A stretch of 32,000 nt of DNA from Lysobacter enzymogenes (GCF_023617245.1 NZ_CP067396.1:6043271-6075270); one strand, 5' to 3'; positions 627 through 21,734 are shown, counted from the stretch's first letter. Notes: generated by a model from the letters alone, not told the origin. Program-made: numbers and translations.

Positions 627-1106
627 ATGTCGAAGATCACGACCACGTTCCAACCGTCCGCCTCGCTGCTGGCGCAGTTAGCGCGCCTGCCCGAGATGTC
701 GTGGGCCGAGCTGAAAGCCGAGCATCAACGTCTCTACCACGCCGAGCCGGCGGTGAAGCATCGCCGCTTTGTCGAACGCCGCATCGCGACGCGACTGCAG
801 GAGATCGAGTACCGCCAACACGACCGCGCTCGCTTGGACCGGAACCAGCGGCGCATCCGCGCGCTGGTCGAGTCCGGCGAGATTCCACCGCGCGCACGCA
901 ACACCGCGCCGATGCCGGGCACCGTGCTGTCGCGCGAATTTAACGGCGCGCTTCACTGCGTCACGGTTGGACAAGCCGGCGTCGCCGAGTACCTGGGCCG
1001 GCAGTACACCAGCCTGTCGGCCGTCGCTCGCGCCATCACCGGTACCCGCTGGTCCGGTCCGGCGTTCTTCGGCCTGCGCACCACAAATAAGAAGGAGTCG
1101 AAGTGA
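627..1106 (+). CDS. DUF2924-like protein, first gene of the serine-recombinase module
   Basis: The C-terminal GTVLSREFNGALHCVTVGQAGVAEYLGRQYTSLSAVARAITGTRWSGPAFFGL fits the pattern I recall for DUF2924 proteins that precede large serine recombinases. The stop TGA at 1104-1106 overlaps the recombinase GTG at 1103. The start is uncertain: ATG 570, 597 or 627. Confidence 0.7.
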   Translation: MSKITTTFQPSASLLAQLARLPEMSWAELKAEHQRLYHAEPAVKHRRFVERRIATRLQEIEYRQHDRARLDRNQRRIRALVESGEIPPRARNTAPMPGTVLSREFNGALHCVTVGQAGVAEYLGRQYTSLSAVARAITGTRWSGPAFFGLRTTNKKESK

Positions 1107-2455: not shown

Positions 2456-2910
2456 ACCGCCCGAGCTTGGAGATCACCGGCCAGGCCGAGCGTCTGGACA
2501 TCAGCGACGGCAGCGTGATCGTCGTCGCGCCCATCCGGCTGAAGCGCCGGAGTGGCCGGCGCCTGGTGCAGATGCAGGCTGCGCCCGAGAACAGCCGGCC
2601 CTGGGACAAGCAGAAGACGCCGTTGCAGGTCGCGCTGATGCGGGCGCACCGCTGGCTGGCGATGCTGGAGGAAGGCGAGGCCGCGAGCTTGAGCGACATC
2701 GCCCGGCGCGAAGGCACGGACGTCAGCTACGTCGCGCGGGTGCTGAACTTGACGACGCTGGCGCCGGAGATTGTTGAGGTCATCTTGGATGATGCATTGC
2801 CGAACGGCATTTTCCTTAACGACCTCGCCATCAATCCACCGCTAGCGTGGCATAGCCACGTTAACGATCTGACACACCGAGCAAACGCTCGGCATGCCAG
2901 CATTTCTTAA
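2452..2910 (+). CDS. recombinase-associated small protein with putative HTH
   Basis: Its ATG at 2452 overlaps the recombinase TGA (ATGA). SLSDIARREGTDVSYVARVLNLTTLAPEIVEVILDD resembles the HTH plus LAPxIVExILDG tail seen in proteins encoded after such recombinases. Composition shifts towards AT over the last ~40 codons. Confidence 0.6.
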   Translation: MNRPSLEITGQAERLDISDGSVIVVAPIRLKRRSGRRLVQMQAAPENSRPWDKQKTPLQVALMRAHRWLAMLEEGEAASLSDIARREGTDVSYVARVLNLTTLAPEIVEVILDDALPNGIFLNDLAINPPLAWHSHVNDLTHRANARHASIS

Positions 2911-2934
2911 ACACACACCTGAAGGTCCGCTTTC

Positions 2935-3357
2935 ATGGATTTCATGAGTCCAGAAACCCGAAGCCGCGTCATGTCTCACATCCGAGGGCGCAACACAAAG
3001 CCCGAAATGGTCGTGCGAAAATACCTCCACGGCCGTGGCCTACGCTATAGCCTCCACGACTCGCGTCTTCCGGGAAAACCCGACATCGTATTCAGATCTC
3101 GCAAGATTGTGGTTTTCGTGCACGGATGCTTCTGGCATGGACACGAGGGCTGTCCTTCCTGGAAGATGCCGCAAAGCCGAACAGAATATTGGCAGGCAAA
3201 ACTACAGCGGAACCGCGACCGGGATGCCGAAACTGTTCGCAAGCTAAAAGAGAAGAACTGGCAGGTTGTTGTCCTGTGGGCGTGTCAATTGGGCGAGGAT
3301 GCGCTGGCCTCGCTCTATAAATTGATCGCCGGCCACCCAGCAAAGAAGAAGAACTAG
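2935..3357 (+). CDS. vsr: very short patch repair endonuclease (Vsr)
   Basis: SPETRSRVMSHIRGRNTKPEMVVRKYLHGRGLRYSLHDSRLPGKPDIVF and the FVHGCFWHGH motif are diagnostic of the Vsr family. It lies adjacent to a C5-MTase. GAAGG sits 9 nt upstream of ATG 2935. Confidence 0.95.
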   Translation: MDFMSPETRSRVMSHIRGRNTKPEMVVRKYLHGRGLRYSLHDSRLPGKPDIVFRSRKIVVFVHGCFWHGHEGCPSWKMPQSRTEYWQAKLQRNRDRDAETVRKLKEKNWQVVVLWACQLGEDALASLYKLIAGHPAKKKN

Positions 3358-4581
3358 TTACGCAGCAACCAACTGCATCATCTCAGAAGCGAGCCCATCG
3401 TAATCCTTCCCCTCGTCTAGAGCCTTTAGCACCTCTTGCGCCAGAAGGCCCAATGCATGCCCAAGCAAGGGCGGCACCGCATTGCCAATCTGCTTAAGCT
3501 GCTGCCACTCACTGCCACGAAAAACAAAACCGTCATGGAATGACTGCAGGCGAGCCGCCTCCCGCACCGTGATCCAGCGATTAAGGTAGGGATGCACCCA
3601 CTCGCTTAAGTCCCGATGCATATGGGCCAAAATCGTGTATGACGGCTCCTCTGGATGTAAGCGCCTCCATTTTTCAGGGCGCTTACCGTCCCATATCGCC
3701 TTAGGCAGGCTATCTGCTTTCTTGCCAGGTTCCAGCAGCGCGATTAGCTTGGCGCGGCGAGCTTGAATTTCTTTAGTGTGGTGGTTGTGAAGGATGGCTT
3801 CTTCTTGGCCGAGTCCTCGCTGGCGCTTGACCATTTTTGTGTACTGCGCCACCCCATGATCCAGCCTCATCATCTTCTGAAACCTGGACAAATTTGAAGC
3901 TTCTGGATACGTCATGGTCTCGCCGCTATGAACCACATCCTCCGGAAGGTCATCAATAGCTTCACGGACAGTGACGTGCTTCCGCACTTTAAGCTTGTCC
4001 AGAACAGCTTCGCAAAAACCCTGAAGATCGAATGCGAACTGATCCTCATCCCTCGTACCGACAAAAATTACCCGTTGCCGAAGCTGAGGAACACCGTAGT
4101 CAGCCGCAGACAAGCGCAAAACGACTGTGTTGCTGTACCCAATAGAGGCGAACTTGTTGAGAATAAGCTTGCGAAAATGCCCCTTATTCAGCAACACCAT
4201 GTTCGGGACGTTCTCCATGAGGAAAACGCGTGGGCGCTGCTTTTCTACGATCCGCGTGTACTGGAGATACAGTTCATTGCGTTCATCATCGAGCCGTCGA
4301 GTGCCGATCTGGCTGTACCCCTGACAGGGTGGACCTCCGAACACTAGGTCCAGATCGTTCAAGCGATACTTCTTAGCATCTGCCGAACGCGGCTTCAAAA
4401 AATCGTGCACATCCCCTTCGATCAGTGGGGTCGCCGGAAAATTGTGGCGATACGTCTCGCAGGCGAAGCGATCCATTTCGACAGCAGCACGGATGTCAAA
4501 TCCTGCCGTCTTAATACCTTCGCAGAACCCGCCGCAACCTGAGAACAAGGACAGGGCGGTCGGCATGGTCGTCTTCTTCAT
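3358..4581 (-). CDS. DNA (cytosine-5)-methyltransferase of the R-M system
   Basis: It has the C5-MTase motifs I (LSLFSGCGGF), IV (GGPPCQGYS), VI (FLMENVPNM) and X (QIGNAVPPLL). ATG 4581 was chosen because GGAG lies 7 nt upstream. GTG 4593 and ATG 4566 are alternatives. Confidence 0.95.
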   Translation of the reverse strand: MKKTTMPTALSLFSGCGGFCEGIKTAGFDIRAAVEMDRFACETYRHNFPATPLIEGDVHDFLKPRSADAKKYRLNDLDLVFGGPPCQGYSQIGTRRLDDERNELYLQYTRIVEKQRPRVFLMENVPNMVLLNKGHFRKLILNKFASIGYSNTVVLRLSAADYGVPQLRQRVIFVGTRDEDQFAFDLQGFCEAVLDKLKVRKHVTVREAIDDLPEDVVHSGETMTYPEASNLSRFQKMMRLDHGVAQYTKMVKRQRGLGQEEAILHNHHTKEIQARRAKLIALLEPGKKADSLPKAIWDGKRPEKWRRLHPEEPSYTILAHMHRDLSEWVHPYLNRWITVREAARLQSFHDGFVFRGSEWQQLKQIGNAVPPLLGHALGLLAQEVLKALDEGKDYDGLASEMMQLVAA

Positions 4582-4697
4582 GGGCGGCTCCACCGGCGTC
4601 TACATGTGACTTTCAAACTTCGCAGTAGCCTACCTGTGCTAGCTCGATTCTTCAACTTCTAGTTGCTCAAAGCCCATTTGAGCACAAGATGATCAGT

Positions 4698-4729
4698 TGT
4701 GACTCATAGTCCGTAGTCTCTTGATCTAC
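4698..4729 (+). promoter_or_regulatory. C-box operator for the controller protein
   Basis: tGT-GACTCATAGTC-CGT (4701-4711 is a perfect GACT-N3-AGTC palindrome followed by CGT). A degenerate second half-site AGTCTCTTGATCTAC follows. The site lies 20-50 nt upstream of the C-gene ATG, in the divergent M / C-R intergenic region. Confidence 0.6.
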
Positions 4730-4748
4730 AGATAAATACGCTGGCTTC

Positions 4749-4988
4749 ATGGATCTTGCTGCCAGCTTCGGCTCCGCCGTGCGACGACATCGGGAACTTC
4801 TCCGGCTCAGCCAAGAAGACTTGGCTGATCGCTCGGGGCTTGATCGCACTTACATCAGTGGCGTAGAGCGCGGCGTCAGAAATCCGACACTGCAAGTGAT
4901 GCAGAGGCTGGCGGACGCTCTTGGGGTGGATCTGGATGTGCTGTTTGCAACGGCCCGTGAGTGTGCGTCCGCCGGAGGAAAGAGCTGA
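4749..4988 (+). CDS. R-M controller (C) protein, XRE-family HTH
   Basis: 79 aa. RRHRELLRLSQEDLADRSGLDRTYISGVERGVRNPTLQVMQRLADALGV matches the C-protein consensus (SQE.LA...G..RTYIS..ERG.RNPTL). Its stop TGA at 4986-4988 overlaps the next ATG at 4988. Confidence 0.85.
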   Translation: MDLAASFGSAVRRHRELLRLSQEDLADRSGLDRTYISGVERGVRNPTLQVMQRLADALGVDLDVLFATARECASAGGKS

Positions 4989-5995
4989 TGCCATTTGTAG
5001 CTGATCCGGCAATCAACTGCGCCAACTGCCCATATGGAGAGTGCATCGAGGACCGCCGCGTTAACCGGGTGGCGAATAGAAATACTGAGTTCCGCCTGAA
5101 GCAGGCGACGATCCTGGGTTGTACCTTCGACTCCTTTGTACCCGGGTGCGACTCAGATCCAATGTCTGGTCGTGCGTTCGACGAATACATCGGACAGATG
5201 CGCGTCAATTCCAACGGCGCCGGCACCCAGAAATATGGCGCAGGATTCAAGCTAGCGATAAGCGCGGTCGCCAAGGTCGAGGGCGACGTGTTTGAACTGC
5301 TTGAAGCCGCCGCGCTTTGGAACGCAGCGGCCGCATGGAATCGCTTCATGGATAGCGGCCTCTGGGCCTCGCAATCATTCACGCAGCCTGTCGCATCCAT
5401 TGCGACTCCGGCGCGGAAGATCGCAATCGTTAAGCTTCCCAGGGGATACGACACAATTCGCCTGTTCAAACCGGAGGTTCAGGCGACTATTAGAGCGTTT
5501 GAGCATGCGATGCAATTGGCGGACATGACATTGGGGTTGTCTTCGCCCGACATAGTGGGCGTGCGGTTGCCGCATCCACTGCCTCCAGGGCTCGCCAAGT
5601 TCCTCGTTGATCTCCCCAATCTCAATGCTCAGAACGCCATCGGCCTGGAAGACGCCTATCGCTGCCTGGAAGGCCAGCTGGACAGCAGCGCCTTCCTGCT
5701 CGCGATCGCGGTCAAACGAACCACTCGGAGTGACCGGCTATACCAACCGCTATACGAAGCCACTGTTCTCAAGTTTCTTATTGAGTATGTGCTCCGGGGG
5801 GCAGCATTTCGCTTCTATGCCCACCTAGGTTCGTATGATGGAGCAAATGTCATTAAGGCTTATAAGTCTGGCTTGCTTACCTCACTTATTCGCGGTGGGA
5901 TGGGACAGAAAGCGGTCGACCAGCTTTACCATGCAGTTTCACCCAGGGCTACTGCACAGTCCATTCTTGATGACTTACCTAAGTTTCCAATTTAG
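4988..5995 (+). CDS. Type II restriction endonuclease, Cfr10I/NgoMIV/Bse634I-like (CCGG-core family)
   Basis: It is translationally coupled to the C gene (cTGATG). It has PD (5546-5551), then A-V-K with the K at D+55 (5708-5716), then E at K+14 (5756-5758). An R-S-D-R lies at K+4..K+7 (5726-5737). This spacing matches what I recall for NgoMIV K187 / R191-S-D193-R194 / E201. Confidence 0.65.
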   Translation: MPFVADPAINCANCPYGECIEDRRVNRVANRNTEFRLKQATILGCTFDSFVPGCDSDPMSGRAFDEYIGQMRVNSNGAGTQKYGAGFKLAISAVAKVEGDVFELLEAAALWNAAAAWNRFMDSGLWASQSFTQPVASIATPARKIAIVKLPRGYDTIRLFKPEVQATIRAFEHAMQLADMTLGLSSPDIVGVRLPHPLPPGLAKFLVDLPNLNAQNAIGLEDAYRCLEGQLDSSAFLLAIAVKRTTRSDRLYQPLYEATVLKFLIEYVLRGAAFRFYAHLGSYDGANVIKAYKSGLLTSLIRGGMGQKAVDQLYHAVSPRATAQSILDDLPKFPI

Positions 5996-6683: not shown

Positions 6684-9600
6684 ATGGATCGTCCTCATAT
6701 CGACATGGAAACGTCCCGCCCTGCGCTCAGCCCACGCGGCTTCGAACGTCCTTCCAAGGTTGCTTCTCGCAGCCCGGCCTTCTCCCGCACCCTGGCTCGC
6801 ATTGGCGAGCTTCGCGCCTGCATTCTTCAAAAGGCATACACCGTGATAACACCCGCGAACGGAACGCAACCGGGCCCCGATGCGATAAGCAAGCGGCGCC
6901 CATCCCCACGCACCTCTTGGAGAACCGCCATCCTACGAGCGGCCTCGTTGGCACTGCTGGCTTGCGCTTCTTGGTCGGCTTCAGCCTGCGAAGAGACCTA
7001 TAGATACTCGGTCTACCCATCGCATCGCATTCTGGAAGGCACCTGCAAAACGCACGCAGAAGCGATGGCGGCTTGCAAAGCAACCGTTCAAGCCCTGGGG
7101 CATCCGGAGCATTGCACGTACACGCCATCCGCAGGCTGGCTGAACATAGGCGGGGGAAATTGGTACTTCGTCAAATACAGCGCCGACCCGCAAAACGCCC
7201 GGCCCGAAAAGAACATGGGCGCCCCAGATTGCCCGGGGCAATGCTTCGGCGACCCGATCAACGCCGGCAACGCCAACAAGTTCGAATCCAAGGTCGAGTA
7301 TCGCGGCGACGGCCCGTTCCCGCTGGAGTTTTCCTGGACCTACAACTATCTGCTGCTTTGGGACACCCTGCCCCCGAATGCGTACGTACTAGGGGGGAAT
7401 CGCACCTTCAACTATGGCAGCCGTGCCACACGCTGGGCCTTACCCACCGGAGCAGCCAGGGTTTTCATCTCCCGCCCGGACGGGAAGGTCGCCGCGTTCA
7501 AGAAACCCGCTTCCGGCAATGAATGGGTTCCCTATGCAAGCGTGACCACCCGCCTGCTCGAAACCCCTACCGGCTGGGAATACGAGGACGAAGACGGGCA
7601 CATCGAAGTCTTCGACAGCGCCGGCTTGTTGACGCAAATCCGTAGCCCGGATGGATATCGCCAACTGCTGACCTACGACTCTGCAGGCCGTCTGCAAACC
7701 GTGACCGACCCGCTAGGGCGTCAGCTCGGCTTCCAGTACAACGCGGCCAATCTGATTTCACAACTGGACCTGCCCGACGGACGAACGATCAAGCTTGCCT
7801 ACACACCGGAAAAGCGCCTCACTGTCGTCGAGTATCAGGACGGCACGAAGGTCAAGTACCTGTACGACGAAGTTGGATACATTGGCTCAAGCATGTACGT
7901 GACCGGCGCGCTCACCGGCGTGGAAGACGAATCGGGCGCTCGCTATTCCTCCACGCGCTACTCGGCAGATCGCGCGAAAGGCACCGAGCTGGCCGGCTCG
8001 TTGGACCAGTACACCTCGAGCTACACCAGCTCGGACAACGGCACCTTCATGACGTACGCCCAGATCGGGTTACCGTCGGGCGCATCCAGGAAGCTCAATC
8101 TCGCCAGCGTCAACGGACGAATAGTACCGACGAAGATCGTCACCGAGTGTTCCGGATGTACGCCGCGCACGGTCAGTTACACCTACGATCTCAACGGCCA
8201 CTACGATGTGATCAACGACAACGGCGTTGTAACCGACTACGACTACGACGCGCGCGGCCGCTTGCTGAAACAGGTGGAAGCCGCGAGCGACATCTCCGGG
8301 CTCCGTCGCACCACCCAAACCGACTGGCATGCGGATTTCCGCGTGCCGACAGCGCGCCGCGTCTACGATGCGAGCAATGCACTGGCGATCAACGAGACCT
8401 GGACCTACAACGCCCGCGGTCAGGCGTTGACACACAGTCAGCTAGACGTATCCGGAACCGCCCCGGCCAGAACGATTACGACCACCTACTGCGAACAGGC
8501 GGACGTCGATGCCGGTCGCTGCCCGGTTATCGGCCTGCCTACGCTGGTCGACGGACCACGAACGGATGTCGCCGATACGTTGAGCTACAGCTATTACGCG
8601 TCCGACGACAGCGGCTGCGCCACGGGGCCCAGCAGTTGCGACCACCGCAAGGGCGACGTGTGGAAGGCCACCAACGCACTAGGACACGTAGTTCTCGAAG
8701 CGCTGCGTTACAACGGCGCGGGCCAGTTGCTATCGTCCAAGAACTCCAACGACGTGGTCACGGATTACGAGTACCACGCGCGCGGATGGCCGACTGCGGT
8801 CAAGGTGCGTGGCTCCGACGACAGCGTCGAAACCGACGATCGGATCACCCGCATCGAATATCGCCCTACCGGTCTGGTCGAGCGGATCACCCTGCCCGAT
8901 GGCGACTACCTGCGTTATGCGTATGACGACGCGCATCGCCTGACCGACGTGTTCGACCAGGCGGGCAATACGGTGCATTACACCTTAGACGCGACCGGAA
9001 ACCGAAAGCAGGAGGACGTCAAAACCGTGTCCGGCACGCTGAAGCGCACCATGTCGCGCGTCTACAATCTCTACAACGAACTGAGCGCGATCAAGGACGC
9101 CTCGCAGAACGCGACCGGCTTCACGTACGACGCCCTGGGCAATCCAGACCGGACTACCGATGCGCTGGGCCGGATTACCGATCAGGATTACGATCCGCTC
9201 GGACGCTTGGTGCGCACCTTGCAGGACGTGGGCGGTTTGGAAGTCCAAACGGATGTTCGTTACAACGCGCGGGATCAGATCATCCAGGTGACCGACCCGA
9301 ACCGGTTGGCGACCCACTACCGCTACAACGGTTTCGGCGACCATATCCAGTTGGAAAGTCCCGACACCGGGATCACCGACTACACCTACGACGCCGCCGG
9401 CCAATTGGCGACCAAGAAAGACGCCAACGACGCGGCCGCGAACCGCTACACCTACGACGCGCTGGGTCGACCGAAGGCGATCTTCTACACCGCGACCGGC
9501 CCGGCCGATGTCGAGTACGACTACGACACGGTCAACACTGAATGCACCGCCGGGCAGACCTTTGCCCTGGGTCGCCTGACTGCGAGCCGGACCGAAGGCA

Positions 9601-11300
9601 ACGAGCTGAAATACTGCTACGACCGCTTCGGCCGGATCGTGCGCAAGGTCCAGATCGTCGCCGGCAGGAGCTTCACCCTGCAATACGCCTACACCCTGGG
9701 CGGCAGCCTGAGCGCCATCACTTATCCGGACGGCGTCGTCGTGGATTACGTTCGCGATGCCCAGTCCCGCATCAAGGAAATCGGGGTCCGGCCGAGTGGT
9801 GGCATCCGCACGACGCTCTTAAGCAATGCCACCTACGAACCGTTCGGGCCGGTGAGCGGCTGGACCTACGGCAACGGCCGTACTCTCAACCGCACTTACG
9901 ATCAAGATTACCGTCCGAAAACCATCCTGGACAGCGCCAGCGGCGGCTTGTCGCTGGGTTACGGCTACAACTCCGCCGGGGAATTGACCGAACTCAAGGA
10001 CGGTCTGCAAAGCACCCTTCAGGCAAAGTATGAATACGATACCTTGGGCCGATTGACGGTTACCCGAGACAGCGCGTCCAACGCACTGGACACCTACGGG
10101 TACGACAAAACCGGCAATCGCAAAAGCCTGCTGCATGGAGGCATTACCGACGCCTACGTCTATCCGGTCACCAGCCACCGACTGACCAGCGTGTCCGGCG
10201 TGCCGCGCGGTTACGATGCGGCAGGCAATACCGTCAGCATCGGCAGTACCGCCAAGGAGTTCGTCTACAACGCCAACGACCGTCTGAGCCAGTTCAAGCA
10301 AGGCGGCGCCATCAAGGCCAGCTACAGCTACAACGCGGCGGGCGAGCGGGTCGCGACCACGGGCGCGACGACGGCCGCGATCGATACGTACACCTTGTAC
10401 GACGAAGACGGTAGCTGGATCGGCGATTACAACAGTGCCGGTGCGGCCAAGCAGCAAGCCGTGTGGTTCGATAGCGTACCGGTCGGCCTGGTCATCGGCA
10501 GCGGCAGCACGCAGTCCCTACAGTATGTGCAGCCCGATCATTTGGGCACGCCACGCGCGGTGATTGATCCGGCCCGCAACGTTGCGATCTGGACGTGGGA
10601 TGCTAAGAGCGAGGCATTCGGTAACAGCCCGCCCAATCAAGATCCCGATCTAGACGGCACCGCATTTATGTTCAACATGCGGTTCCCGGGGCAGCGGTTC
10701 GACCCCGCTAGCGGACTCGTCTACAACTATTTCCGCGACTATGATCCAGGTACTGGCCGATATGTCCAAAGTGACCCGATTGGTTTGATTGGTGGGACAA
10801 GTACCTATATCTACGTTGGTGCCGCCCCATTGGCTTACGTCGATCCGCTCGGCCTTCAGGCAGGATGCCAGCCGACGGGACTGGCATGGTGTCAGCAAAA
10901 GTGCGCGGCGGCCGGACTGACCATGAAAGCGTGTGTTACTACGCCAGCACTTTTAGGTTTAGTCCGAGAAGAGCAATGCGATTGCGATGATAGCTGCCCG
11001 ATCGACAAATATGAAAATCCTGGGACCCATGACCCGTCAAATCGCGGAAGGAACCCCTACAATAGCACTAAGAGTAAACTCCCTACTGACCACGAGGATT
11101 TGTGGCGGCAGAGCAGAGCGGGACCAGATGGGAATCGATGGACCAAAGTCGGTAATGGAAAAAACGCCGAGTACCACCGCTTTCAGAATGACGGAAACGG
11201 TAACTGGCACTGGAACGGTTCGACATCGGGCAAGACTGCGAACGGCGCGCCACGTGCGATTAGAATCAATGACGTACCCAGTTCAGTTCAGAGGTGGTGA
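6684..11300 (+). CDS. full-length Rhs/YD-repeat polymorphic toxin with variable C-terminal toxin domain
   Basis: There are dozens of YD repeats (YDSAGRLQTV, YDALGNPDRT, YDPLGRLVRT, YDAAGQLATK and others). An N-terminal GDPINAGNANKFE plug-like segment is present. The Rhs core ends with DPIGL...VDPLGL at 10842-10856, followed by an AT-richer 147-codon tail. The start is ambiguous: ATG 6684, or GTG 6843 with AAGG 8 nt upstream. Confidence 0.93.
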   Translation: MDRPHIDMETSRPALSPRGFERPSKVASRSPAFSRTLARIGELRACILQKAYTVITPANGTQPGPDAISKRRPSPRTSWRTAILRAASLALLACASWSASACEETYRYSVYPSHRILEGTCKTHAEAMAACKATVQALGHPEHCTYTPSAGWLNIGGGNWYFVKYSADPQNARPEKNMGAPDCPGQCFGDPINAGNANKFESKVEYRGDGPFPLEFSWTYNYLLLWDTLPPNAYVLGGNRTFNYGSRATRWALPTGAARVFISRPDGKVAAFKKPASGNEWVPYASVTTRLLETPTGWEYEDEDGHIEVFDSAGLLTQIRSPDGYRQLLTYDSAGRLQTVTDPLGRQLGFQYNAANLISQLDLPDGRTIKLAYTPEKRLTVVEYQDGTKVKYLYDEVGYIGSSMYVTGALTGVEDESGARYSSTRYSADRAKGTELAGSLDQYTSSYTSSDNGTFMTYAQIGLPSGASRKLNLASVNGRIVPTKIVTECSGCTPRTVSYTYDLNGHYDVINDNGVVTDYDYDARGRLLKQVEAASDISGLRRTTQTDWHADFRVPTARRVYDASNALAINETWTYNARGQALTHSQLDVSGTAPARTITTTYCEQADVDAGRCPVIGLPTLVDGPRTDVADTLSYSYYASDDSGCATGPSSCDHRKGDVWKATNALGHVVLEALRYNGAGQLLSSKNSNDVVTDYEYHARGWPTAVKVRGSDDSVETDDRITRIEYRPTGLVERITLPDGDYLRYAYDDAHRLTDVFDQAGNTVHYTLDATGNRKQEDVKTVSGTLKRTMSRVYNLYNELSAIKDASQNATGFTYDALGNPDRTTDALGRITDQDYDPLGRLVRTLQDVGGLEVQTDVRYNARDQIIQVTDPNRLATHYRYNGFGDHIQLESPDTGITDYTYDAAGQLATKKDANDAAANRYTYDALGRPKAIFYTATGPADVEYDYDTVNTECTAGQTFALGRLTASRTEGNELKYCYDRFGRIVRKVQIVAGRSFTLQYAYTLGGSLSAITYPDGVVVDYVRDAQSRIKEIGVRPSGGIRTTLLSNATYEPFGPVSGWTYGNGRTLNRTYDQDYRPKTILDSASGGLSLGYGYNSAGELTELKDGLQSTLQAKYEYDTLGRLTVTRDSASNALDTYGYDKTGNRKSLLHGGITDAYVYPVTSHRLTSVSGVPRGYDAAGNTVSIGSTAKEFVYNANDRLSQFKQGGAIKASYSYNAAGERVATTGATTAAIDTYTLYDEDGSWIGDYNSAGAAKQQAVWFDSVPVGLVIGSGSTQSLQYVQPDHLGTPRAVIDPARNVAIWTWDAKSEAFGNSPPNQDPDLDGTAFMFNMRFPGQRFDPASGLVYNYFRDYDPGTGRYVQSDPIGLIGGTSTYIYVGAAPLAYVDPLGLQAGCQPTGLAWCQQKCAAAGLTMKACVTTPALLGLVREEQCDCDDSCPIDKYENPGTHDPSNRGRNPYNSTKSKLPTDHEDLWRQSRAGPDGNRWTKVGNGKNAEYHRFQNDGNGNWHWNGSTSGKTANGAPRAIRINDVPSSVQRW

Positions 11301-11770
11301 TGGCTATCTTCGCTGGAGATAAGTCGACGTTTGCCATCGAGGCGAGCATTGACAAGAGGGACGGACCGCCCTTCGGCAACGTACGAATATGGCTGAGCGG
11401 CAATTATGTTGGCGCCTATGAGGACCAAGTTCCGATTTTAACTTTTCTTTCAAGAATGAAACGGCTCCTTGATCTTAACATCGACACTGACGGCGCTTTC
11501 TTAAAGTCGAACGAAGCATTTTATAATGCTGTTATGGATGGAACGATGGAGGATGGCGATAGATATCGGCTCGGACTAGGCGAGTCTTTCGATGATTTCT
11601 CGCTCATCGGATTTCTAGATGACAAGCTCATTCGAATCATCTGGATTTTGCATGACGACCCTTTCTTTCAGTATCCGAACTATCCGACAGGACTTCAGAG
11701 CGCAACGATCTCAGTAGATCTCTTTCGATTTGTCGTCGACCAATTCGAGAGTTCTGTAAGAAGTAGCTGA
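11300..11770 (+). CDS. putative cytoplasmic immunity protein for the main Rhs C-terminal toxin
   Basis: Its ATG overlaps the rhs TGA by 1 nt (TGATG). It is AT-richer than the rhs core, has no signal peptide and is acidic. Its position is typical of an rhs immunity gene. No family recognised with confidence. Confidence 0.7.
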   Translation: MAIFAGDKSTFAIEASIDKRDGPPFGNVRIWLSGNYVGAYEDQVPILTFLSRMKRLLDLNIDTDGAFLKSNEAFYNAVMDGTMEDGDRYRLGLGESFDDFSLIGFLDDKLIRIIWILHDDPFFQYPNYPTGLQSATISVDLFRFVVDQFESSVRSS

Positions 11771-14099: not shown

Positions 14100-16865
14100 G
14101 TGCGCCCCGCCCACCGCCGCGCAGTCGTCGATACGTTAAGCTACCGCTACTACGCGTCGGACGACAGCGGCCGTGCCTCCACGCCCAGCAACTGCGGCCA
14201 TCGCAAGGGCGACCTGTGGAAAACCACTAACGCGCTAGGTCAGGTAACCCTGGAAGCGCTGCGTTACAACGGCGCAGGCCAGTTGCTATCGTCCATGAAC
14301 TCTAACGGCGTGGTCACGGATTACGAGTACCAAGCGCGCGGATGGCCGATTGCGGTCAAGGTGCGTGGCTCCGACGACAGCGCCGAGACCGACGATCGGA
14401 TCACCCGCATCGACTACAGCCCTACCGGTCTGGTCGAGCGGATCACCCTGCCCGATGGCGACTACCTGCGTTATGCGTATGACGACGCGCATCGCCTGAC
14501 CGACGTGTTCGACCAGGCGGGCAACACGCTGCATTACACCCTCGACGCGACCGGAAACCGAAAGCAGGAAGACGTCAAAACCGCATCTGGCACGCTAAAG
14601 CACACCATGTCGCGCGTCTACAATCTCTACAACGAACTGAGCGCGATCAAGGACGCTTCGCAGAACGCGACCGGCTTCACGTACGACGCCCTGGGCAATC
14701 CGGACCGGACTACCGATGCGCTGGGCCGGGTCACCGACCAGGATTACGATCCGCTCGGGCGGCTGGTGCGCAGTCTTCAAGACACCGGAGGACTGGAAGC
14801 CCAGACGGATGTCCGCTACAACGCGCGGGATCAGATCATCCAGGTGACCGACCCGAACCGTTTGGCGACCCACTACCGCTACAACGGTTTCGGCGACCAT
14901 ATCCAGTTGGAAAGTCCCGACACCGGGATCACCGACTACACCTACGACGCCGCCGGCCAATTGGCGACCAAGAAAGACGCCAACGACGCGGCCGCGAACC
15001 GCTACACCTACGACGCGCTGGGTCGACCGAAGGCGATCTTCTACACCGCGACCGGCCCGGCCGATGTCGAGTACGACTATGACACCGTCAATAGCGAGTG
15101 CACCGCTGGGCAAACCTTCGCCCAGGGTCGCTTGACCGGGAGTCGGACCGAAGGCAACGAGCTGAAGTACTGCTACGACCGCTTCGGACAGGTCGTGCGC
15201 AAGGTGCAGATCGTCGCGGGCAAGAGCTTCACGCTGCAGTACGCTTACACGCCAGGCGGCAAACTGAGCGCGGTCACCTACCCCGATGGCGCCATGGTCG
15301 ATTACGTCCGGGACGCACAAGCCCGTATCAAGGAAATCGGGGTCCGGCCGAGTGGTGGCATCCGCACGACGCTCTTAAGCAATGCCACCTACGAACCGTT
15401 CGGGCCGGTGAGCGGCTGGACCTACGGTAACGGCCGCGTCCTGAGCCGTACCTACGATCAGGATTATCGTCCCAAGACCATCCTGGATAGCGCCAGCGGT
15501 GGCTTGTCGTTGGGCTACGGCTACAACACAGTCGGCGAACTGGCCGAACTCAAGGATGGCCTCCAAAGCGCGGTCCAAGCCAAGTACGACTACGACACGC
15601 TCGGCCGGCTGACGGTTACCCGTGACGGCACATCCAACGCGCTAGACACCTACGGGTACGACAAGACCGGCAATCGCACGAGTCTGACCCACGGCGGCAT
15701 TACCGATGCCTACGCCTATCCCCTGCCCAGCCACCGGCTGAGCAACGTGGCCGGCGTGGCACGCGGTTACGACGCGGCCGGCAACACCACCAGCATCGGC
15801 GGTACCGCCAGGGAATTCGTCTACAACGCCAACGACCGGCTGAGCCAGTTCAAGCAGGCCGGCGCCATCAAGGCCAGCTACCGCTACAACACAGCGGGCG
15901 AGCGGGTCGCGACCACGGGCGCCACGACGACGACGATCGATACATACACGCTGTACGACGAGGACGGCAACTGGATCGGCGATTACGACAGCACCGGTGC
16001 GGCCAAGCAGCAGGCCGTGTGGTTCGGCAGCGCGCCGGTCGGCCTGGTCATCGGCAGCGGCAGCACGCAGACCTTGCACTATGTGCAGCCGGATCATCTG
16101 GGCACACCGCGCGCGGTCATCGACCCGAGCCGCAACGTCGTCATCTGGAATTGGGACGCCAAGAGCGAGGCGTTCGGCAACAGCCCGCCGAACCAAGACC
16201 CGGATCAGGACGGCACCGCGTTCGTGTACAACATGCGGTTCCCGGGGCAGCGTTTTGATGCAGCAAGCGGATTGGTCTACAACTATTTCCGAGATTACGA
16301 TCCGAGCACCGGGCGGTATATACAAAGCGATCCGATAGGATTGCAGGGCGGAGCCAGCACATATGGGTATGCGGAAAGCAATCCGCTTTCTAGGATTGAT
16401 CCGTATGGCTTGCTTTCCTATCTCTGTCAGAAAGGCAAAAACATAGGAATTGCATTGCCCATCTACTTCACAGGGGGAAAAGCCGCTGACTACCAGCGTA
16501 TAGCTGGCGCGATCGAAAAGGCGTGGTCGAAGAGCTTTGGACCCTGGTATAACGTAAAGTTAAAGGTACTAATCCAGAGCAAGCCCACGACGTCAGCCAA
16601 CTTCGTCAAGATAATTCCAGGACAGCAAGACTCATGGGTGCTTGATGAAGGGGTCAAGACCTTTTTTGGAAAATGGTCACAAACCCCTTACCATTCAGAT
16701 GACCGAGACTACGCTCATGAAGCAGGCCATTTAATGGGAATTGATCATAACCCGACCCGAAGCCTGATGGATATTTATGCAACAGAGCCGGAGCCAACTA
16801 TCAATGACCTCGAGGAACTACTTGAGAGCGATGCAAACAGGCGCGTCTGTGGTTGCGAAAAATAG
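14100..16865 (+). CDS. 5'-truncated Rhs protein with metzincin-type zinc-metallopeptidase C-terminal toxin
   Basis: It is colinear with main rhs 8571-10856 at a constant offset of 5556 nt with no indels. GTG 14100 is preceded by GGAGG (14084-14088) and an in-frame TAG (14097-14099). The core ends with DPYGL at 16398-16412. The tail contains HEAGHLMGIDH (16716-16748), which is HExxHxxGxxH. Confidence 0.85.
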   Translation: MRPAHRRAVVDTLSYRYYASDDSGRASTPSNCGHRKGDLWKTTNALGQVTLEALRYNGAGQLLSSMNSNGVVTDYEYQARGWPIAVKVRGSDDSAETDDRITRIDYSPTGLVERITLPDGDYLRYAYDDAHRLTDVFDQAGNTLHYTLDATGNRKQEDVKTASGTLKHTMSRVYNLYNELSAIKDASQNATGFTYDALGNPDRTTDALGRVTDQDYDPLGRLVRSLQDTGGLEAQTDVRYNARDQIIQVTDPNRLATHYRYNGFGDHIQLESPDTGITDYTYDAAGQLATKKDANDAAANRYTYDALGRPKAIFYTATGPADVEYDYDTVNSECTAGQTFAQGRLTGSRTEGNELKYCYDRFGQVVRKVQIVAGKSFTLQYAYTPGGKLSAVTYPDGAMVDYVRDAQARIKEIGVRPSGGIRTTLLSNATYEPFGPVSGWTYGNGRVLSRTYDQDYRPKTILDSASGGLSLGYGYNTVGELAELKDGLQSAVQAKYDYDTLGRLTVTRDGTSNALDTYGYDKTGNRTSLTHGGITDAYAYPLPSHRLSNVAGVARGYDAAGNTTSIGGTAREFVYNANDRLSQFKQAGAIKASYRYNTAGERVATTGATTTTIDTYTLYDEDGNWIGDYDSTGAAKQQAVWFGSAPVGLVIGSGSTQTLHYVQPDHLGTPRAVIDPSRNVVIWNWDAKSEAFGNSPPNQDPDQDGTAFVYNMRFPGQRFDAASGLVYNYFRDYDPSTGRYIQSDPIGLQGGASTYGYAESNPLSRIDPYGLLSYLCQKGKNIGIALPIYFTGGKAADYQRIAGAIEKAWSKSFGPWYNVKLKVLIQSKPTTSANFVKIIPGQQDSWVLDEGVKTFFGKWSQTPYHSDDRDYAHEAGHLMGIDHNPTRSLMDIYATEPEPTINDLEELLESDANRRVCGCEK

Positions 16866-17304
16866 TCTAGCTATTGCGCTTATCCTCATCGCATCGGGAT
16901 GCAAGGATGAGAAACGCGACGAATTTGTTATCAGTGACCGATTTTCCCTCTGCGCACCAAACGAGGAAATTATTTCAACATCACTCAAAAATGGCATCGA
17001 CGCAACAAAAGGCGATATCTGGATCGGTCGCGACAAGGCCGAAATCGTCATTGATGCGCATCCATACTACCCACTGCGCGAAAAAGTTAAATCACACGAG
17101 AATGCCAAGCCTGGAATTACCCACATAGACTCGGGCAGATATACTTTCCCCTCGGGACCGGGAGAGAGGGAGTTCAACCTGTCCACTTATCGCCTTGAAG
17201 ATGGCAGGACTATTTTCATAGTCCTCTCCGGGGCATCAGATAATACAACCCGCGAATCGCTCATAAATATTCAAAATAAACTATGCCCCTGCGGGAGCTG
17301 TTAA
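16831..17304 (+). CDS. putative lipoprotein immunity protein for the metallopeptidase toxin
   Basis: MQTGASVVAKNSLAIALILIASGC has a lipobox-like ASG-C. It overlaps the rhs 3' end by 35 nt and is AT-rich. The start is uncertain: ATG 16804, ATG 16831 or GTG 16849. Confidence 0.6.
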   Translation: MQTGASVVAKNSLAIALILIASGCKDEKRDEFVISDRFSLCAPNEEIISTSLKNGIDATKGDIWIGRDKAEIVIDAHPYYPLREKVKSHENAKPGITHIDSGRYTFPSGPGEREFNLSTYRLEDGRTIFIVLSGASDNTTRESLINIQNKLCPCGSC

Positions 17305-17371: not shown

Positions 17372-19477
17372 GTGATCGCCGCTGTTCGCAGGCTCTACAA
17401 CGAACTGAGCGCGATCAAGGACGCCTCGCAGAACGCCACTGGCTTCACATACGACGCCCTGGGCAATCCGGACCGGACTACCGATGCGCTGGGCCGGATC
17501 ACCGATCAGGATTACGATCCGCTCGGACGCTTGGTGCGCACCTTGCAGGATGTGGGCGGTTTGGAAGTCCAAACGGATGTTCGTTACAACGCGCGGGATC
17601 AGATCGTCCAGGTCACCGATCCCAACCGACTGGCGACCCACTATCGTTACAACGGTTTCGGCGACCAGATCCAGTTGGAGAGTCCCGACACCGGGACCAC
17701 CGACTACACCTACGATACCGCCGGCCAGTTGGCGACCAAGAAAGACGCCAACGACGCGGCCGCGAACCGCTACACCTACGACGCGCTGGGTCGACCGAAG
17801 GCGATCTTCTACACCGCGGCGGGTCCGGCCGATGTCGAGTACGACTACGACACTGTCAACACCGAATGCATCGCCGGGCAGACCTTCGCCCAGGGTCGCC
17901 TGACCGCGAGCCGGACCGAAGGCAACGAGTTGAAGTACTGCTACGACCGCTTCGGACACGTCGTGCGCAAGGTGCAGATCGTCGCGGGCAAGAGCTTCAC
18001 GCTGCAGTACGCCTACACGCCGGGCGGCAAACTGAGCGCGGTCACCTACCCCGATGGCGCCATGGTCGATTACGTCCGGGACGCACAAGCCCGTATCCAG
18101 GAGATCGGAGTCCAGCCGACTGGTGGCGCCCGCACGGTGCTGTTGAACAATACGACCTACGACCCGTTCGGTCCGGTGACCGGCTGGACCTATGGCAACG
18201 GTCGCGTCCTGAGCCGCACATACGATCTGGACTACCGGCCCAAGACCGTCTTCGATGCCGCCAGCGGCGGCTTGTCGCTGGGTTACGGCTACAATTCCGC
18301 CGGCGAATTGACCGAGCTTAAGGACGGTCTGCAGAGCAACCTCCAGGCCAAGTACGACTACGATACGCTCGGCCGGTTGACGGTTACCCGTGACGGCGCC
18401 TCTAACGCGCTGGACACCTATGGGTACGACAAGATCGGAAATCGCACGAGCCTGGCTCATGGCGACATTACCGATACCTACGCTTACCCCTTGACCAACC
18501 ACCGACTGAGCAGCGTGGCCGGTGTGGCGCGCGGTTACGACGCGGCCGGCAACACCACCAGCGTGGGAGGTAACGCCAAGGAATTCGTCTAGAACGCCAA
18601 CGACCGACTGAACCAGTTCAAGCATGCCGGCGTGATCAAGGCAAGTTATCGTTACAACGCCATCGGTGAGCGCGTTGCAACCACTGGCGGCACAATCGGC
18701 GTCGTCCATACCTACACGCTATATGACGAAGCCGGCCACTGGATCGGCGATTACGACAGCACCGGCGCGGCCAGGCAGCAGGCCGTGTGGTTCGACGATG
18801 CACCAGTCGGCGTGGTGGTTGGCAGTGGTGGCGCGCAGGCGCTGCACCATGTACAGCCGGACCATCTGGGTACGCCGCGCGCAGTCATCGATCCCAGCCG
18901 CAATGTTGCAGTCTGGACCTGGGATGCCAAGAGCGAGGCATTCGGCAATAGCCCGCCGAACCAAGACCCAGATCAGGACGGCACCGCATTCGTGTTCGAT
19001 ATGCGGTTCCCGGGGCAGCGACTCGATGTCGTAAGCGGATTATTTTACAACTACCATCGCGATTACGACTCATCTGTCGGCCGTTATGTTCAATCTGATC
19101 CGATCGGTCTCACGGGTGGAATTCTTCTGTATGGCTATAGCTGGAGCAGCCCACTTATCAATAGCGATCCCTTTGGTCTGCAGCCGGCCAACACCGTAGT
19201 TTGCGGAACAGATGGCAAACTAGTCGTAAAAGTCGATAGCGGCCAATCAGAGTACTGCGGGCTGAAGGAGTGTCTCATTAGACACGAAGAATGCCACGCG
19301 AAGGAAATGAGCGAAGATAAGAATATCGTGGAATTCTGCTCGACCCCTGGCAACGCGAACAAATCCATCTATATCGACTGGAAGCAGAAACAGGCCTTGG
19401 AACTTACAGGAACTCAGGCCGAGCTGGACTGCCTGAATAAAAAGCAAAAAAAGAAGATTACACTTGCAGAAAAGTAA
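17372..19477 (+). pseudogene. orphan rhs C-terminal cassette 3 (small Cys-rich HExxH tail), interrupted by an in-frame TAG
   Basis: It is colinear with main rhs 9069-10856 at a constant offset of 8324 nt. An in-frame TAG at 18590-18592 sits where the paralogs have TAC (EFVYNAND). The core ends with DPFGL at 19166-19180. The 98-codon tail has six Cys and HEECH (19283-19297). Confidence 0.8.
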
Positions 19478-19562
19478 TAAACGAACGCATTAAAAAGATC
19501 CAACAAAATCGCAATGCCTGTGAGTCAGATGAAAAAAATGCGTATTCAAATGAGGCGATCCT

Positions 19563-20042
19563 ATGAAGCCAATAGCGCTCCTTCTCCCGCTCTGTCTTTT
19601 GACATCTGAAGTCACGGCCAGCCCAAAATTCACGATGGCCGTGGATTCGAATATTGATCGAAAAGCAGGTGACGCGGAGTTGACGTTCAATCTCACTTTA
19701 TCCGGCCCCAACCCTGTCGCTGTGGCTAGGAGTTCGATTCCAGGCGTCCAAAAGAATGCCATATGGACAAGCGCGGAATATTTCCCAAATTATGGGGAAA
19801 AATATCGTCCTTGCCCAAAACCAAAGGAAAAAATTGAGATCAACGACGGACTCCTCGGCACCACCACAATTAAGCCGGGACAGTCGTTTCAGCAGAAAAT
19901 GAAACTTTCAGATTTGTATTTTAATGCCAATGAGATCGTAGGAAAATGCGATCTAGTCTTGTTCTGGACCTACAAGCCAGAACTCGAATCAGGCGAACAT
20001 ACCGAGCGACTTGCTGGAGCGGTCGTCATAACAGCCGAGTAG
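19563..20042 (+). CDS. putative exported immunity protein for orphan cassette 3
   Basis: The signal peptide is MKPIALLLPLCLLTSEVTASP. GAGG lies ~9 nt upstream. It is AT-rich and a paralog of 20368-20865. Confidence 0.6.
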   Translation: MKPIALLLPLCLLTSEVTASPKFTMAVDSNIDRKAGDAELTFNLTLSGPNPVAVARSSIPGVQKNAIWTSAEYFPNYGEKYRPCPKPKEKIEINDGLLGTTTIKPGQSFQQKMKLSDLYFNANEIVGKCDLVLFWTYKPELESGEHTERLAGAVVITAE

Positions 20043-20086
20043 CTTCGTTTCGGCCAGGCCTCATGGTACTTACGGTGATAGTCCAA

Positions 20087-20109
20087 GGCCCCGACAACGG
20101 GGCCTTTTT
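20087..20109 (+). terminator. rho-independent terminator / cassette-boundary hairpin, copy 4
   Basis: GGCCCCG-ACAA-CGGGGCC followed by TTTTT. Confidence 0.7.
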
Positions 20110-20121
20110 AGCCGCCATTGA

Positions 20122-20340
20122 CACCTAATCGCTGAAACCGGCAACTGGATCAGCGATTACGACAGTACCGGAGCAGCCAAGCAGCAAATCGCGTGGCTCG
20201 GCAATCCGCCGGTCAGCTTCGTGGTCGGCAGCGGCGGCACGCAGACGTCGTGGTATGTACAGCCGGATCATCTGGGTATGCGACGAGCGGTCGTCGATCC
20301 CAGCCGCAACATCGCCATCTGGACCTGGGATGCAATGTGA
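20122..20340 (+). pseudogene. rhs core remnant without a toxin domain
   Basis: It translates to ETGNWISDYDSTGAAKQQIAWLGNPPVSFVVGSGGTQTSWYVQPDHLGMRRAVVDPSRNIAIWTWDAM*. This is homologous to the other copies (DGNWIGDYDSTGAAKQQAVWF...IWTWDAKSEAFGN). Homology stops at WDA and a TGA follows. Confidence 0.75.
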
Positions 20341-20367
20341 GGAAGACCCAAAGGACTGTAACTTCAA

Positions 20368-20865
20368 ATGAGCCATCACATGAAATGGACAGCACTGTTG
20401 ACCGCCCTTGCCCTCTCGATGCCCGCGGGAGGAACCGAGAGGCCTGAATTCGAAATTACTGTTGCACAAGAAGTGGGCGCCAAGGCAGGCGATGCGACCC
20501 TACATTTCGATCTGTCGTATAACGGCCAGCAACCAGTAAGAATCAGAGCTAGCTCGGTACCGGGCACACAGGATACTGCAATATGGATACTGGCCGAGCG
20601 CTTCCTCGACATTGGATCGAGCACTCGGGGCGACTGCCCGAGGCTGAAAGAAATAATCTTCATTGATGATGGGAAGCTGGGCAGTACGACAATCCATCCC
20701 GGGCAGCACATCAAACAGTCGATCAAGCTCTCCGATCGATATTCAAACACGGCGCAAGTAGTTGGGAAATGCGACACTGTTGTGTTCTGGAGTTATAAGC
20801 CAGATAAAGAGACCGGCGACAGTCAGCGCGTGTCCGGAGCAATTCTGTTGCCCGGCGCACATTAA
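20368..20865 (+). CDS. orphan exported immunity-protein paralog with no adjacent toxin
   Basis: A signal peptide (MKWTALLTALALSMPAGG) is present. It aligns along its length with 19563-20042, for example KAGDATLHFDLSYNG vs KAGDAELTFNLTLSG and VVGKCDTVVFWSYKPD vs IVGKCDLVLFWTYKPE. The start is ATG 20368 or 20380. Confidence 0.6.
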   Translation: MSHHMKWTALLTALALSMPAGGTERPEFEITVAQEVGAKAGDATLHFDLSYNGQQPVRIRASSVPGTQDTAIWILAERFLDIGSSTRGDCPRLKEIIFIDDGKLGSTTIHPGQHIKQSIKLSDRYSNTAQVVGKCDTVVFWSYKPDKETGDSQRVSGAILLPGAH

Positions 20866-20907
20866 AATTGTGAATATCTGAACAATCGTTCAATCCAGAT
20901 ACAAGGC

Positions 20908-20941
20908 AAGGGAGGGGGTTTATCGCCCTCCCTTTTGCTTT
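20908..20941 (+). terminator. rho-independent terminator closing the rhs array
   Basis: AAGGGAGGG, a 9-nt loop, CCCTCCCTT, then TTGCTTT. It differs from the four internal hairpins. Confidence 0.7.
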
Positions 20942-21305: not shown

Positions 21306-21734
21306 ATGCGTACCAACAAGATGTGGGCGGTAGGCGCGTTGATTTCGGCTTTGACGGTAGGACACAGCGCTCCAGCCTATGCGGGCGACATGAGCAACGC
21401 GGTGGTGACCTGTTACGTCGACACCTTCGCCGTGGACGTGCCCGAGGCGTTCACCTGTTTCTCGACATGGAAGCCGGGCAAGGCGACGAATCCGACCAGC
21501 GCGTACTTCCAGGTCGCTGGCTTGGGCCAGGGAAACTATTCCTATGCCTGGCTCGATGTGGAAACCAACACCGTGCCCGCCAATTGCGGCAACCAAAGCT
21601 TGTGTCGTAAATCGATCGCCACTGAAACCCGTAACGACGGGGAGGCTACGCTTCGCGTAACCATCACCGATCTCGATACCGGCGAGAGCAAGAGCGCGCA
21701 GGCGACCGCGTTCTACAATGATGGATACAACTGA
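21306..21734 (+). CDS. small secreted hypothetical protein
   Basis: GGAGG lies 4-5 nt upstream of the ATG. The signal peptide is MRTNKMWAVGALISALTVGHSAPAYA. GC3 is host-like. The mature part has four Cys. No family recognised. Confidence 0.6.
   Translation: MRTNKMWAVGALISALTVGHSAPAYAGDMSNAVVTCYVDTFAVDVPEAFTCFSTWKPGKATNPTSAYFQVAGLGQGNYSYAWLDVETNTVPANCGNQSLCRKSIATETRNDGEATLRVTITDLDTGESKSAQATAFYNDGYN

Follow-up and report, generated by a model that had tools for sequence, protein, structure and literature searches.

This report concerns an rhs array of Lysobacter enzymogenes, located in a stretch of 32,000 nucleotides (nt) of a single strand (GCF_023617245.1 NZ_CP067396.1:6043271-6075270), which is called the window below and from whose first letter all positions are counted. 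In this array, a main rhs gene precedes a series of 5′-truncated orphan cores, every one of which has a tail of its own and a small gene 3′ of it, and the finding reported here bears on the last two modules, numbered 3 (also called orphan 3) and 4. Both modules close with a gene for a protein of ~160 amino acids (aa) that bears a signal-peptide-like N-terminus and that probably serves as the immunity protein of the adjacent toxin. As sequenced, the two modules are made up of the following features:

17372-19180, plus strand: rhs core fragment of orphan 3, without N-terminus or signal peptide (translation, PF03527)
19181-19477, plus strand: putative HExCH toxin tail as now read, 98 codons with the stop at 19475-19477, six Cys
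19439-19443, plus strand: lesion 1, an A5 run with one base less than the A6 or A5G of L010, L001 and L011 (DNA alignment)
19532-19538, plus strand: lesion 2, A7 in the window vs. A8 in relatives (DNA alignment)
19563-20042, plus strand: putative immunity paralog 1, of 159 aa, with a signal peptide, two invariant Cys and a predicted beta-sandwich fold
20085-20110, plus strand: terminator-like hairpin and T-run closing module 3 (fold −17.6 kcal/mol, z = −3.5)
20128-20334, plus strand: rhs-core remnant of module 4, IAETGNW...WTWDA, with an out-of-frame TGA at 20338-20340
20333-20334, plus strand: deletion junction, lacking the last ~75 core codons and ~115 toxin codons of the relative L006
20336-20371, plus strand: surviving 3′ end of the deleted toxin, CEEDPKDCNFK and stop (tblastn 83% over 12 aa, translation, alignment)
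20368-20865, plus strand: putative immunity paralog 2, of 165 aa (161 aa if the ATG at 20380 is the start)
20903-20941, plus strand: terminator-like hairpin at the close of module 4 and of the array (found by the scan as well; fold −23.5 kcal/mol, z = −4.3)

Two damaged modules and their exported partners

The open reading frame (ORF) that opens module 4 (20128-20337) comprises 70 codons and reads ...SRNIAIWTWDAM before its stop, its similarity to other rhs cores ending at 20333/20334. A first-pass annotation of this DNA had described precisely such a remnant, broken off at WDA and followed by a TGA, and translation and alignment agree with that description. What is missing can be read from L006, a metagenomic contig carrying a complete signal-peptide Rhs of 1451 aa. 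The tail of this protein (ASNNTVVCG...CLVKHEECHAKDM...CEADPKDCNFK, then stop) is ~45% identical to the orphan-3 tail, and its stop codon overlaps the start of the immunity gene P0006 (ATGA), an arrangement also found in L013 and L014 with P0005. Gapped alignment of the window to L006 gives two matching blocks on either side of a gap:

window 20134-20333, L006 4092-4291: 76.5% identity
absent from the window, L006 4292-4887: 596 base pairs (bp), counted against a relative and not an ancestor, so that the original size of the deletion is approximate
window 20334-20896, L006 4888-5450: 82.9% identity

The junction reads TGGGATGC/AATGTGAGGAAGACCC, and the parental sites share at most 2 nt (AA). 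From AATGTGAGGAAGACCC onward the window again matches L006, L013 and L012; the 11 surviving toxin codons and their stop are out of frame with the core, and the TGA of this stub overlaps the ATG of the immunity gene (ATGA, 20368-20371), the same coupling as in the intact L006. No toxin copy other than the damaged one of orphan 3 was found by tblastn in the window. These end-points are direct evidence that an internal deletion removed core and toxin codons and spared the gene of paralog 2, as had been proposed from the window alone; indeed, the orthologs of this gene in L006, L013 and L014 stand behind intact Rhs tails of the HExCH family.

The core of orphan 3 ends in a DPFGL cleavage-type motif (19166-19180), the boundary between core and tail reading ...SDPIGLTGG...SDPFGL/QPANTVVCG, and a boundary of the same DPxGL type is found in all homologs. 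Beyond it lies the tail that the first-pass annotation had called minimal. Its 98 aa, its six Cys and its HEECH motif (19283-19297) stand as read; the label does not, since intact homologous tails, of which there are at least 10, measure 120-134 aa, contain 9-11 Cys and end in C-x-F-[KDNR], their stop lying ~10 nt before the immunity start or overlapping it. The intact set consists of L010, L001, L011, L006, L013, L014, L002-L005, L008 (Lysobacter sp. CA196), L009 (a Dokdonella metagenome-assembled genome, MAG) and P0012-P0016; in L015, which begins within the tail, the last 100 aa only are readable. Against the 124-aa tails of L010, L001 and L011, two A-runs of the window are shorter by one base each, and the absent C-terminal 34 residues, among them three further Cys, are readable in the other two frames as ...KKEDYTCRKVINERIKKIQQNRNACESDEK and then KCVFK, the latter being the homologous frame after lesion 2, with the ancestral stop at 19551-19553. 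Alignment therefore presents the orphan-3 tail as a frameshift-truncated copy of a ~124-aa tail. With the two bases restored, the tail has nine Cys and is 94% identical to that of L010 at a ratio of nonsynonymous to synonymous substitution rates (dN/dS) of 0.10, which implies that the frameshifts are either recent or homopolymer sequencing errors. The core carries, in addition, an in-frame TAG (18590-18592) at a codon that is TAC in orphan 2, and orphan 3 would be disabled by this stop and by the two 1-nt losses, provided that the lesions are real. As orphan 3 itself appears to be disabled, both immunity genes are effectively orphans, and the contrast drawn earlier between an intact pair and a paralog stripped of its toxin was overstated: as sequenced, neither gene has a functional cognate toxin.

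Downstream of lesion 1, the heptamer A AAA AAG (19447-19453) is a canonical −1 slippery sequence, phased so as to lead back into the homologous frame (…KKEDYTC…). It is probably coincidental. Programmed frameshifting was rejected as the principal explanation of the tail, relatives encoding it in one frame and a second shift being needed at 19532-19538.

The two exported ORFs are paralogs, with 74/158 identical residues (47%; expect value, E = 4e-50), and they share the sequence blocks and the two conserved Cys by which they had been recognized at first sight. Modules 3 and 4 resemble one another in both halves, with toxins ~45% identical and immunity proteins 47% identical. Paralog 2 is the ortholog of P0004, P0005 and P0006. 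Two copies of the immunity gene, and these only, were found by tblastn in the window.

A rare family linked to Rhs proteins

A word-indexed search with the 98-aa tail returned no relatives, which were reached through the DNA neighbouring immunity homologs and, later, by an exhaustive phmmer search of the tail. The family is rare. The immunity protein forms nine clusters among 5.8 billion and occurs in 2 of 185,579 species-representative genomes (Lysobacter sp. CA196 and the Dokdonella MAG), while phmmer found six true relatives of the tail among 1.84 billion representative proteins, five of them the C-termini of Rhs/YD proteins and the sixth (P0011) the tail fragment of L012; ~13 distinct loci are known in all. 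Upstream flanks of immunity homologs were readable at L001-L015, in Lysobacter sp. CA196 and in the Dokdonella MAG, and all of them held a toxin remnant, an Rhs core or a homologous tail. The immunity proteins are accordingly rare and Rhs/YD-adjacent, and do not belong to a widespread periplasmic family unlinked to rhs loci, the outcome that would have told against the first-pass annotation. At every locus read, the start of the immunity gene either overlaps the toxin stop (ATGA) or lies 10 nt beyond it, and immunity clades follow toxin clades, the type of paralog 1 going with QPANTVVCG... tails and that of paralog 2 with ASNNTVVCG... tails. Sister toxins occur in other samples at 44-59% identity to the orphan-3 tail, with the Dokdonella sequence as an outlier at 28%, and every one of them has a particular immunity variant as its partner; the early suggestion of a set of related toxins in circulation is thereby supported.

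An unrelated signal-peptide protein of 164 aa (L002 1886-2380) comes after the immunity gene at the P0009 loci; it was tried as a third paralog and rejected at an hhalign probability of 0.8%. Farther along the same contig (L002 2441-11544), the opposite strand carries a phage-tail-like or gene transfer agent-like cluster (Phage-tail_3, Gp84-N, BR0599).

The toxin was modelled from the intact P0013 tail on an alignment of eight rows that includes the window fragments. The predicted structure, with a mean predicted local distance difference test (pLDDT) of 89.7 and a predicted template modelling score (pTM) of 0.82, consists of a beta-hairpin, a long helix bearing HExCH, a short helix and two more long helices. 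H35, E36, C38 and H39 are invariant, which for H35, E36 and H39 covers 10 aligned tails and the further five of P0012-P0016, and H35, E36 and H39 lie within the predicted helix 24-44; the next long helix carries an invariant Q71 and E74 (Q-x-x-E), E74 standing 35 residues past the second His. In HExxH enzymes, the third metal ligand is a Glu provided by a further helix in gluzincins, and a His or Asp in metzincins and aspzincins. If the two helices of the tail run antiparallel, E74 would face H35 and H39 in a gluzincin-like site. P56, N58 and seven Cys are likewise invariant among the tails, and a disulfide between C8 and C26 is suggested because both are lost together in Dokdonella. Ferritin-like structures came first in a Foldseek search with the model and were rejected (template modelling score, TM, ~0.25); RGS-like and MOFRL matches from the Pfam, NCBIfam and PDB searches, at E 0.03-0.1, were taken as noise.

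Searches of Pfam, NCBIfam and PDB sequences with the tail, with intact homologs of it and with both immunity proteins yielded no meaningful match. The AlphaFold2 model of the immunity protein (paralog 1) is a beta-sandwich (pLDDT 83), which in fold comes closest to the AsaP1 zinc metalloprotease precursor, to ApaG proteins and to the intracellular proteinase inhibitor of B. subtilis. The beta-rich part of the AsaP1 structure is its inhibitory propeptide, which may be the part that the immunity model matches.

The carriers of these tails appear to be exported proteins. Sec-type signal peptides begin the main Rhs of the window (6684-7000), the Rhs proteins of L006 (570-670) and L008 (5262-5400), P0014 and P0015, and Pfam found no PAAR domain on any of these five full-length carriers, returning instead DUF6531 or Peptidase_C39, the latter near the N-terminus in P0015. 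No type VI secretion system (T6SS) genes were found in the 32-kb window. Together, a Cys-rich toxin, an exported immunity protein and an exported carrier point to action in the periplasm or envelope.

The main rhs gene (6684-11300) encodes 1538 aa with RHS repeats and a weak DUF6531 match, below threshold. PF05593 and PF03527 match it and orphan 2, as well as the full-length carriers P0014, P0015 and L008; in orphan 3, PF03527 alone matches, slightly under its curated cut-off, and YD repeats were seen by eye in the translation. The tail of the main Rhs (window 10800-11770) is also Cys-rich (…CQPTGLAWCQQKCAAAGLTMKACVTT…CDCDDSC…), and the ORF that follows it (11294-11770) has a weak Imm42 match (E 0.008). 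Orphan 2 (window 14100-17304) has a different tail, with a metzincin-like HEAGHLMGIDH and weak Reprolysin/Matrixin matches (E ~0.02), and the next ORF begins with a lipoprotein-type signal (…LILIASGC); the two would make up a second envelope-directed module of metallopeptidase type in the same array. Just beyond the array, an ORF of 142 aa (21306-21734) has a signal-peptide-like N-terminus and no family match in Pfam or NCBIfam. Upstream of the array lie genes for a large serine recombinase (1103-2455) and for two DNA-acting enzymes, a C-5 cytosine DNA methylase on the minus strand (3358-4593) and a restriction endonuclease of the Cfr10I/Bse634I type (4961-5995), in a region (1103-5995) where the guanine-cytosine content falls from ~68% to 52-57%. 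The array appears to lie in or beside a mobile island.

Retention of the immunity genes

The account that we regard as likely, in its structural and evolutionary terms, is that the last two modules belong to one rare toxin/immunity family, that the toxin of module 4 was deleted and that of module 3 broken, and that the immunity genes were kept. Each module would have begun as an rhs-core fragment with a C-terminal toxin and an exported immunity gene. A tail of ~124 aa, folded as a beta-hairpin and three long helices and plausibly stapled by disulfides among its seven invariant Cys, would be released after the DPxGL motif, and the layout of H-E-x-C-H and Q-x-x-E, which fits a gluzincin-like zinc site, would make it a metal-dependent hydrolase of the cell envelope. 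The Sec-exported beta-sandwich protein would bind and block its cognate toxin in the periplasm. In module 4, an illegitimate deletion of 596 bp joined the core, at WTWDA, to the final 11 codons of the toxin and spared the immunity gene coupled to them. Both immunity genes, full-length and constrained, would most plausibly have been kept to neutralize the same two toxin variants when delivered by neighbours.

The case for such retention comes from unequal decay. The core remnant of module 4 has eight private replacements in 63 alignable codons, at positions invariant in the six other core copies, which have 0-3 each, and its pairwise omega is 0.23-0.32 vs. ~0.10 among intact copies. Paralog 2, on the other hand, has a single private replacement (D to G) in 165 codons, other family members having 0-4; its dN/dS against orthologs is 0.07-0.31, and that of paralog 1 is 0.07-0.21. 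Orphaned immunity genes are also found elsewhere: in L007, the P0007 gene comes last in an rhs array, preceded by nothing more than an eroded toxin 3′ end, and in L012 the P0004 gene follows a toxin frameshifted by a 2-nt insertion. Taken together, differential decay and dN/dS favour selective retention of the immunity genes and, indirectly, selection for protection.

Several points weigh against this account. The decay comparison involves small numbers and differing comparator sets. A promoter scan of either immunity gene returned sites no more frequent than in shuffled sequence, and the terminator-like hairpin at 20085-20110 lies between the two genes, so that expression of paralog 2 is only presumed. 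Both frameshifts of orphan 3 sit in homopolymers and could be sequencing errors. The fold matches of the immunity model are weak (E 5e-5 to 3e-3, TM 0.4-0.5), a beta-sandwich being a generic fold. Foldseek found nothing significant for the toxin model in PDB (best E 0.3, TM 0.25) or in the viral library, and neither Pfam nor NCBIfam nor a PDB profile search gave a zincin match, although a very small, divergent zincin could still escape such searches. The metallohydrolase idea draws on a short motif and on helix geometry from predicted secondary structure alone. Metal-hydrolase chemistry, taken by itself, is given a little less than an even chance. The fuller proposal is put forward more tentatively and is, in our judgment, doubtful: it holds that the HExCH tail is a new, non-zincin fold, a disulfide-stapled, metal-dependent envelope toxin of ~125 aa, whose carriers would be Rhs proteins of Lysobacterales that are Sec-exported and independent of the T6SS, and whose antidote would be a beta-sandwich immunity protein similar to a protease propeptide.

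Three other explanations have to be set against protective retention. The one with the best claim, though still unlikely, is that the A-run frameshifts are homopolymer errors, in which case the genome would hold an intact 124-aa tail and paralog 1 would be the ordinary partner of a stored toxin. Both lesions are indeed single-base A-run contractions, the typical error class, and the restored tail is 94% identical to that of L010 at a dN/dS of 0.10; yet the TAG at 18590 results from a change of C to G and is no homopolymer error, no other long ORF in the window looks obviously broken (GC-rich genes having few A-runs), and the public gene call P0010 (281 aa) has the same ends as the ORF of the window, although it probably comes from the same assembly. 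If the lesions are real, the low dN/dS of the restored tail can be turned to another use, for young lesions may have left paralog 1 without time to decay, and both immunity genes might be neutral leftovers of recent toxin losses, with no selection for protection. To this reading would also belong the lack of an evident promoter, the hairpin upstream of paralog 2 and the D to G replacement of paralog 2, which falls at a position invariant in ten other aligned family members. It is nonetheless improbable: the adjoining core remnant has already accumulated its eight replacements in 63 codons against one in 165 in the immunity gene, two independent samples, L007 and L012, again show an intact immunity gene whose toxin is lost or eroded, and dN/dS between the orphan copies of the window and of L007 is 0.15.

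A last alternative denies the immunity function and makes of the ~160-aa proteins accessory factors of the Rhs toxin, such as a partner secreted along with it or a chaperone or adaptor in the periplasm. No library assigns them a family or a function, and a periplasmic helper is conceivable for a carrier that is itself Sec-exported. Their genes, however, lie directly 3′ of the toxin, with a start that overlaps its stop or follows ~10 nt past it, which is the canonical position of an immunity gene; the proteins co-vary with the toxin variant, and they outlast the toxin in the window, in L007 and in L012, as the helper of a lost toxin would not be expected to do. This alternative is considered very improbable.

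The locus offers an instance of orphan immunity formation whose scar is legible, with both end-points, a toxin stub, the ATGA coupling and differing rates of decay, and a toxin/immunity pair that is unannotated anywhere and whose confidently predicted toxin fold is without structural neighbours. If the toxin acts in the envelope, as the exported immunity protein implies, the pair (~125 aa and ~140 aa) would be a compact handle on the means by which Sec-dependent Rhs toxins arrive at neighbouring cells and kill them, and if the tail is indeed a non-zincin fold, the paralogs of the window would record an arms race involving at least two specificity types of an undescribed toxin class. The locus is of value as an example and for its new family rather than for a new principle.

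Comparison with known systems

Metallopeptidase domains are known as C-terminal toxins, among them Tox-MPTase1-5, Tox-HopH1 and Tox-ALF, and signal-peptide RHS toxins such as Tox-MPTase5, with its HEELH motif, have been classed as exported by a type II secretion system, “T2SS” (Zhang et al., 2012, PMC3482391). The present family resembles these families in having HExxH C-terminal toxin domains on RHS proteins. It differs from them in its predicted beta-hairpin and Cys-rich three-helix bundle, with no zincin neighbour detected, and the Pfam models of Tox-MPTase1-5, Tox-HopH1 and Tox-ALF matched 0 of 10 family members even at E<=10. The closest working analogue in outline is the VgrG2b/PA0261 pair of P. 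aeruginosa (Tpe/Tpi), in which a C-terminal metallopeptidase with HExxH is toxic in the periplasm only and is countered by a Cys-containing, disulfide-dependent immunity protein with a signal peptide (Wood et al., 2019, PMC6899460). In PDB searches by sequence and by fold, neither the toxin nor the immunity protein of the window matched VgrG2b-Cter or PA0261, and VgrG2b is delivered as a T6SS spike, whereas the carrier here is an Rhs with a Sec signal.

Orphan rhs-CT/rhsI and cdiA-CT/cdiI modules are known downstream of main rhs genes (Poole et al., 2011, PMC3150448; Koskiniemi et al., 2014, PMC3967940), and orphan immunity genes without a cognate effector have been described for a Serratia Rhs NADase (PMC10539506) and in Bacteroidales (PMC12247911). 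Orphan rhs modules and orphan immunity genes being established, the phenomenon itself is ordinary; what is new here is an undescribed toxin fold, an undescribed immunity family and Rhs carriers with Sec signals. The array of the window follows the orphan rhs-CT/rhsI plan, with a main rhs (6684-11300) and then 5′-truncated cores, each with a tail and a small 3′ gene, and core homology could let a stored tail recombine into the main gene. Unlike in those systems, the stored toxins are degraded, one being deleted and the other carrying a stop and two frameshifts, and the carriers have Sec signal peptides and not PAAR or T6SS features. As in Serratia and Bacteroidales, an intact immunity gene is found without a functional cognate toxin, non-self protection is presumed and variants exist in other strains. 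The toxin and immunity families differ from those of Serratia and Bacteroidales, and the protective role suggested here is read from sequence; in the window, however, the scar of the deletion is still legible, and the origin of the orphan immunity gene from a complete module can be reconstructed.

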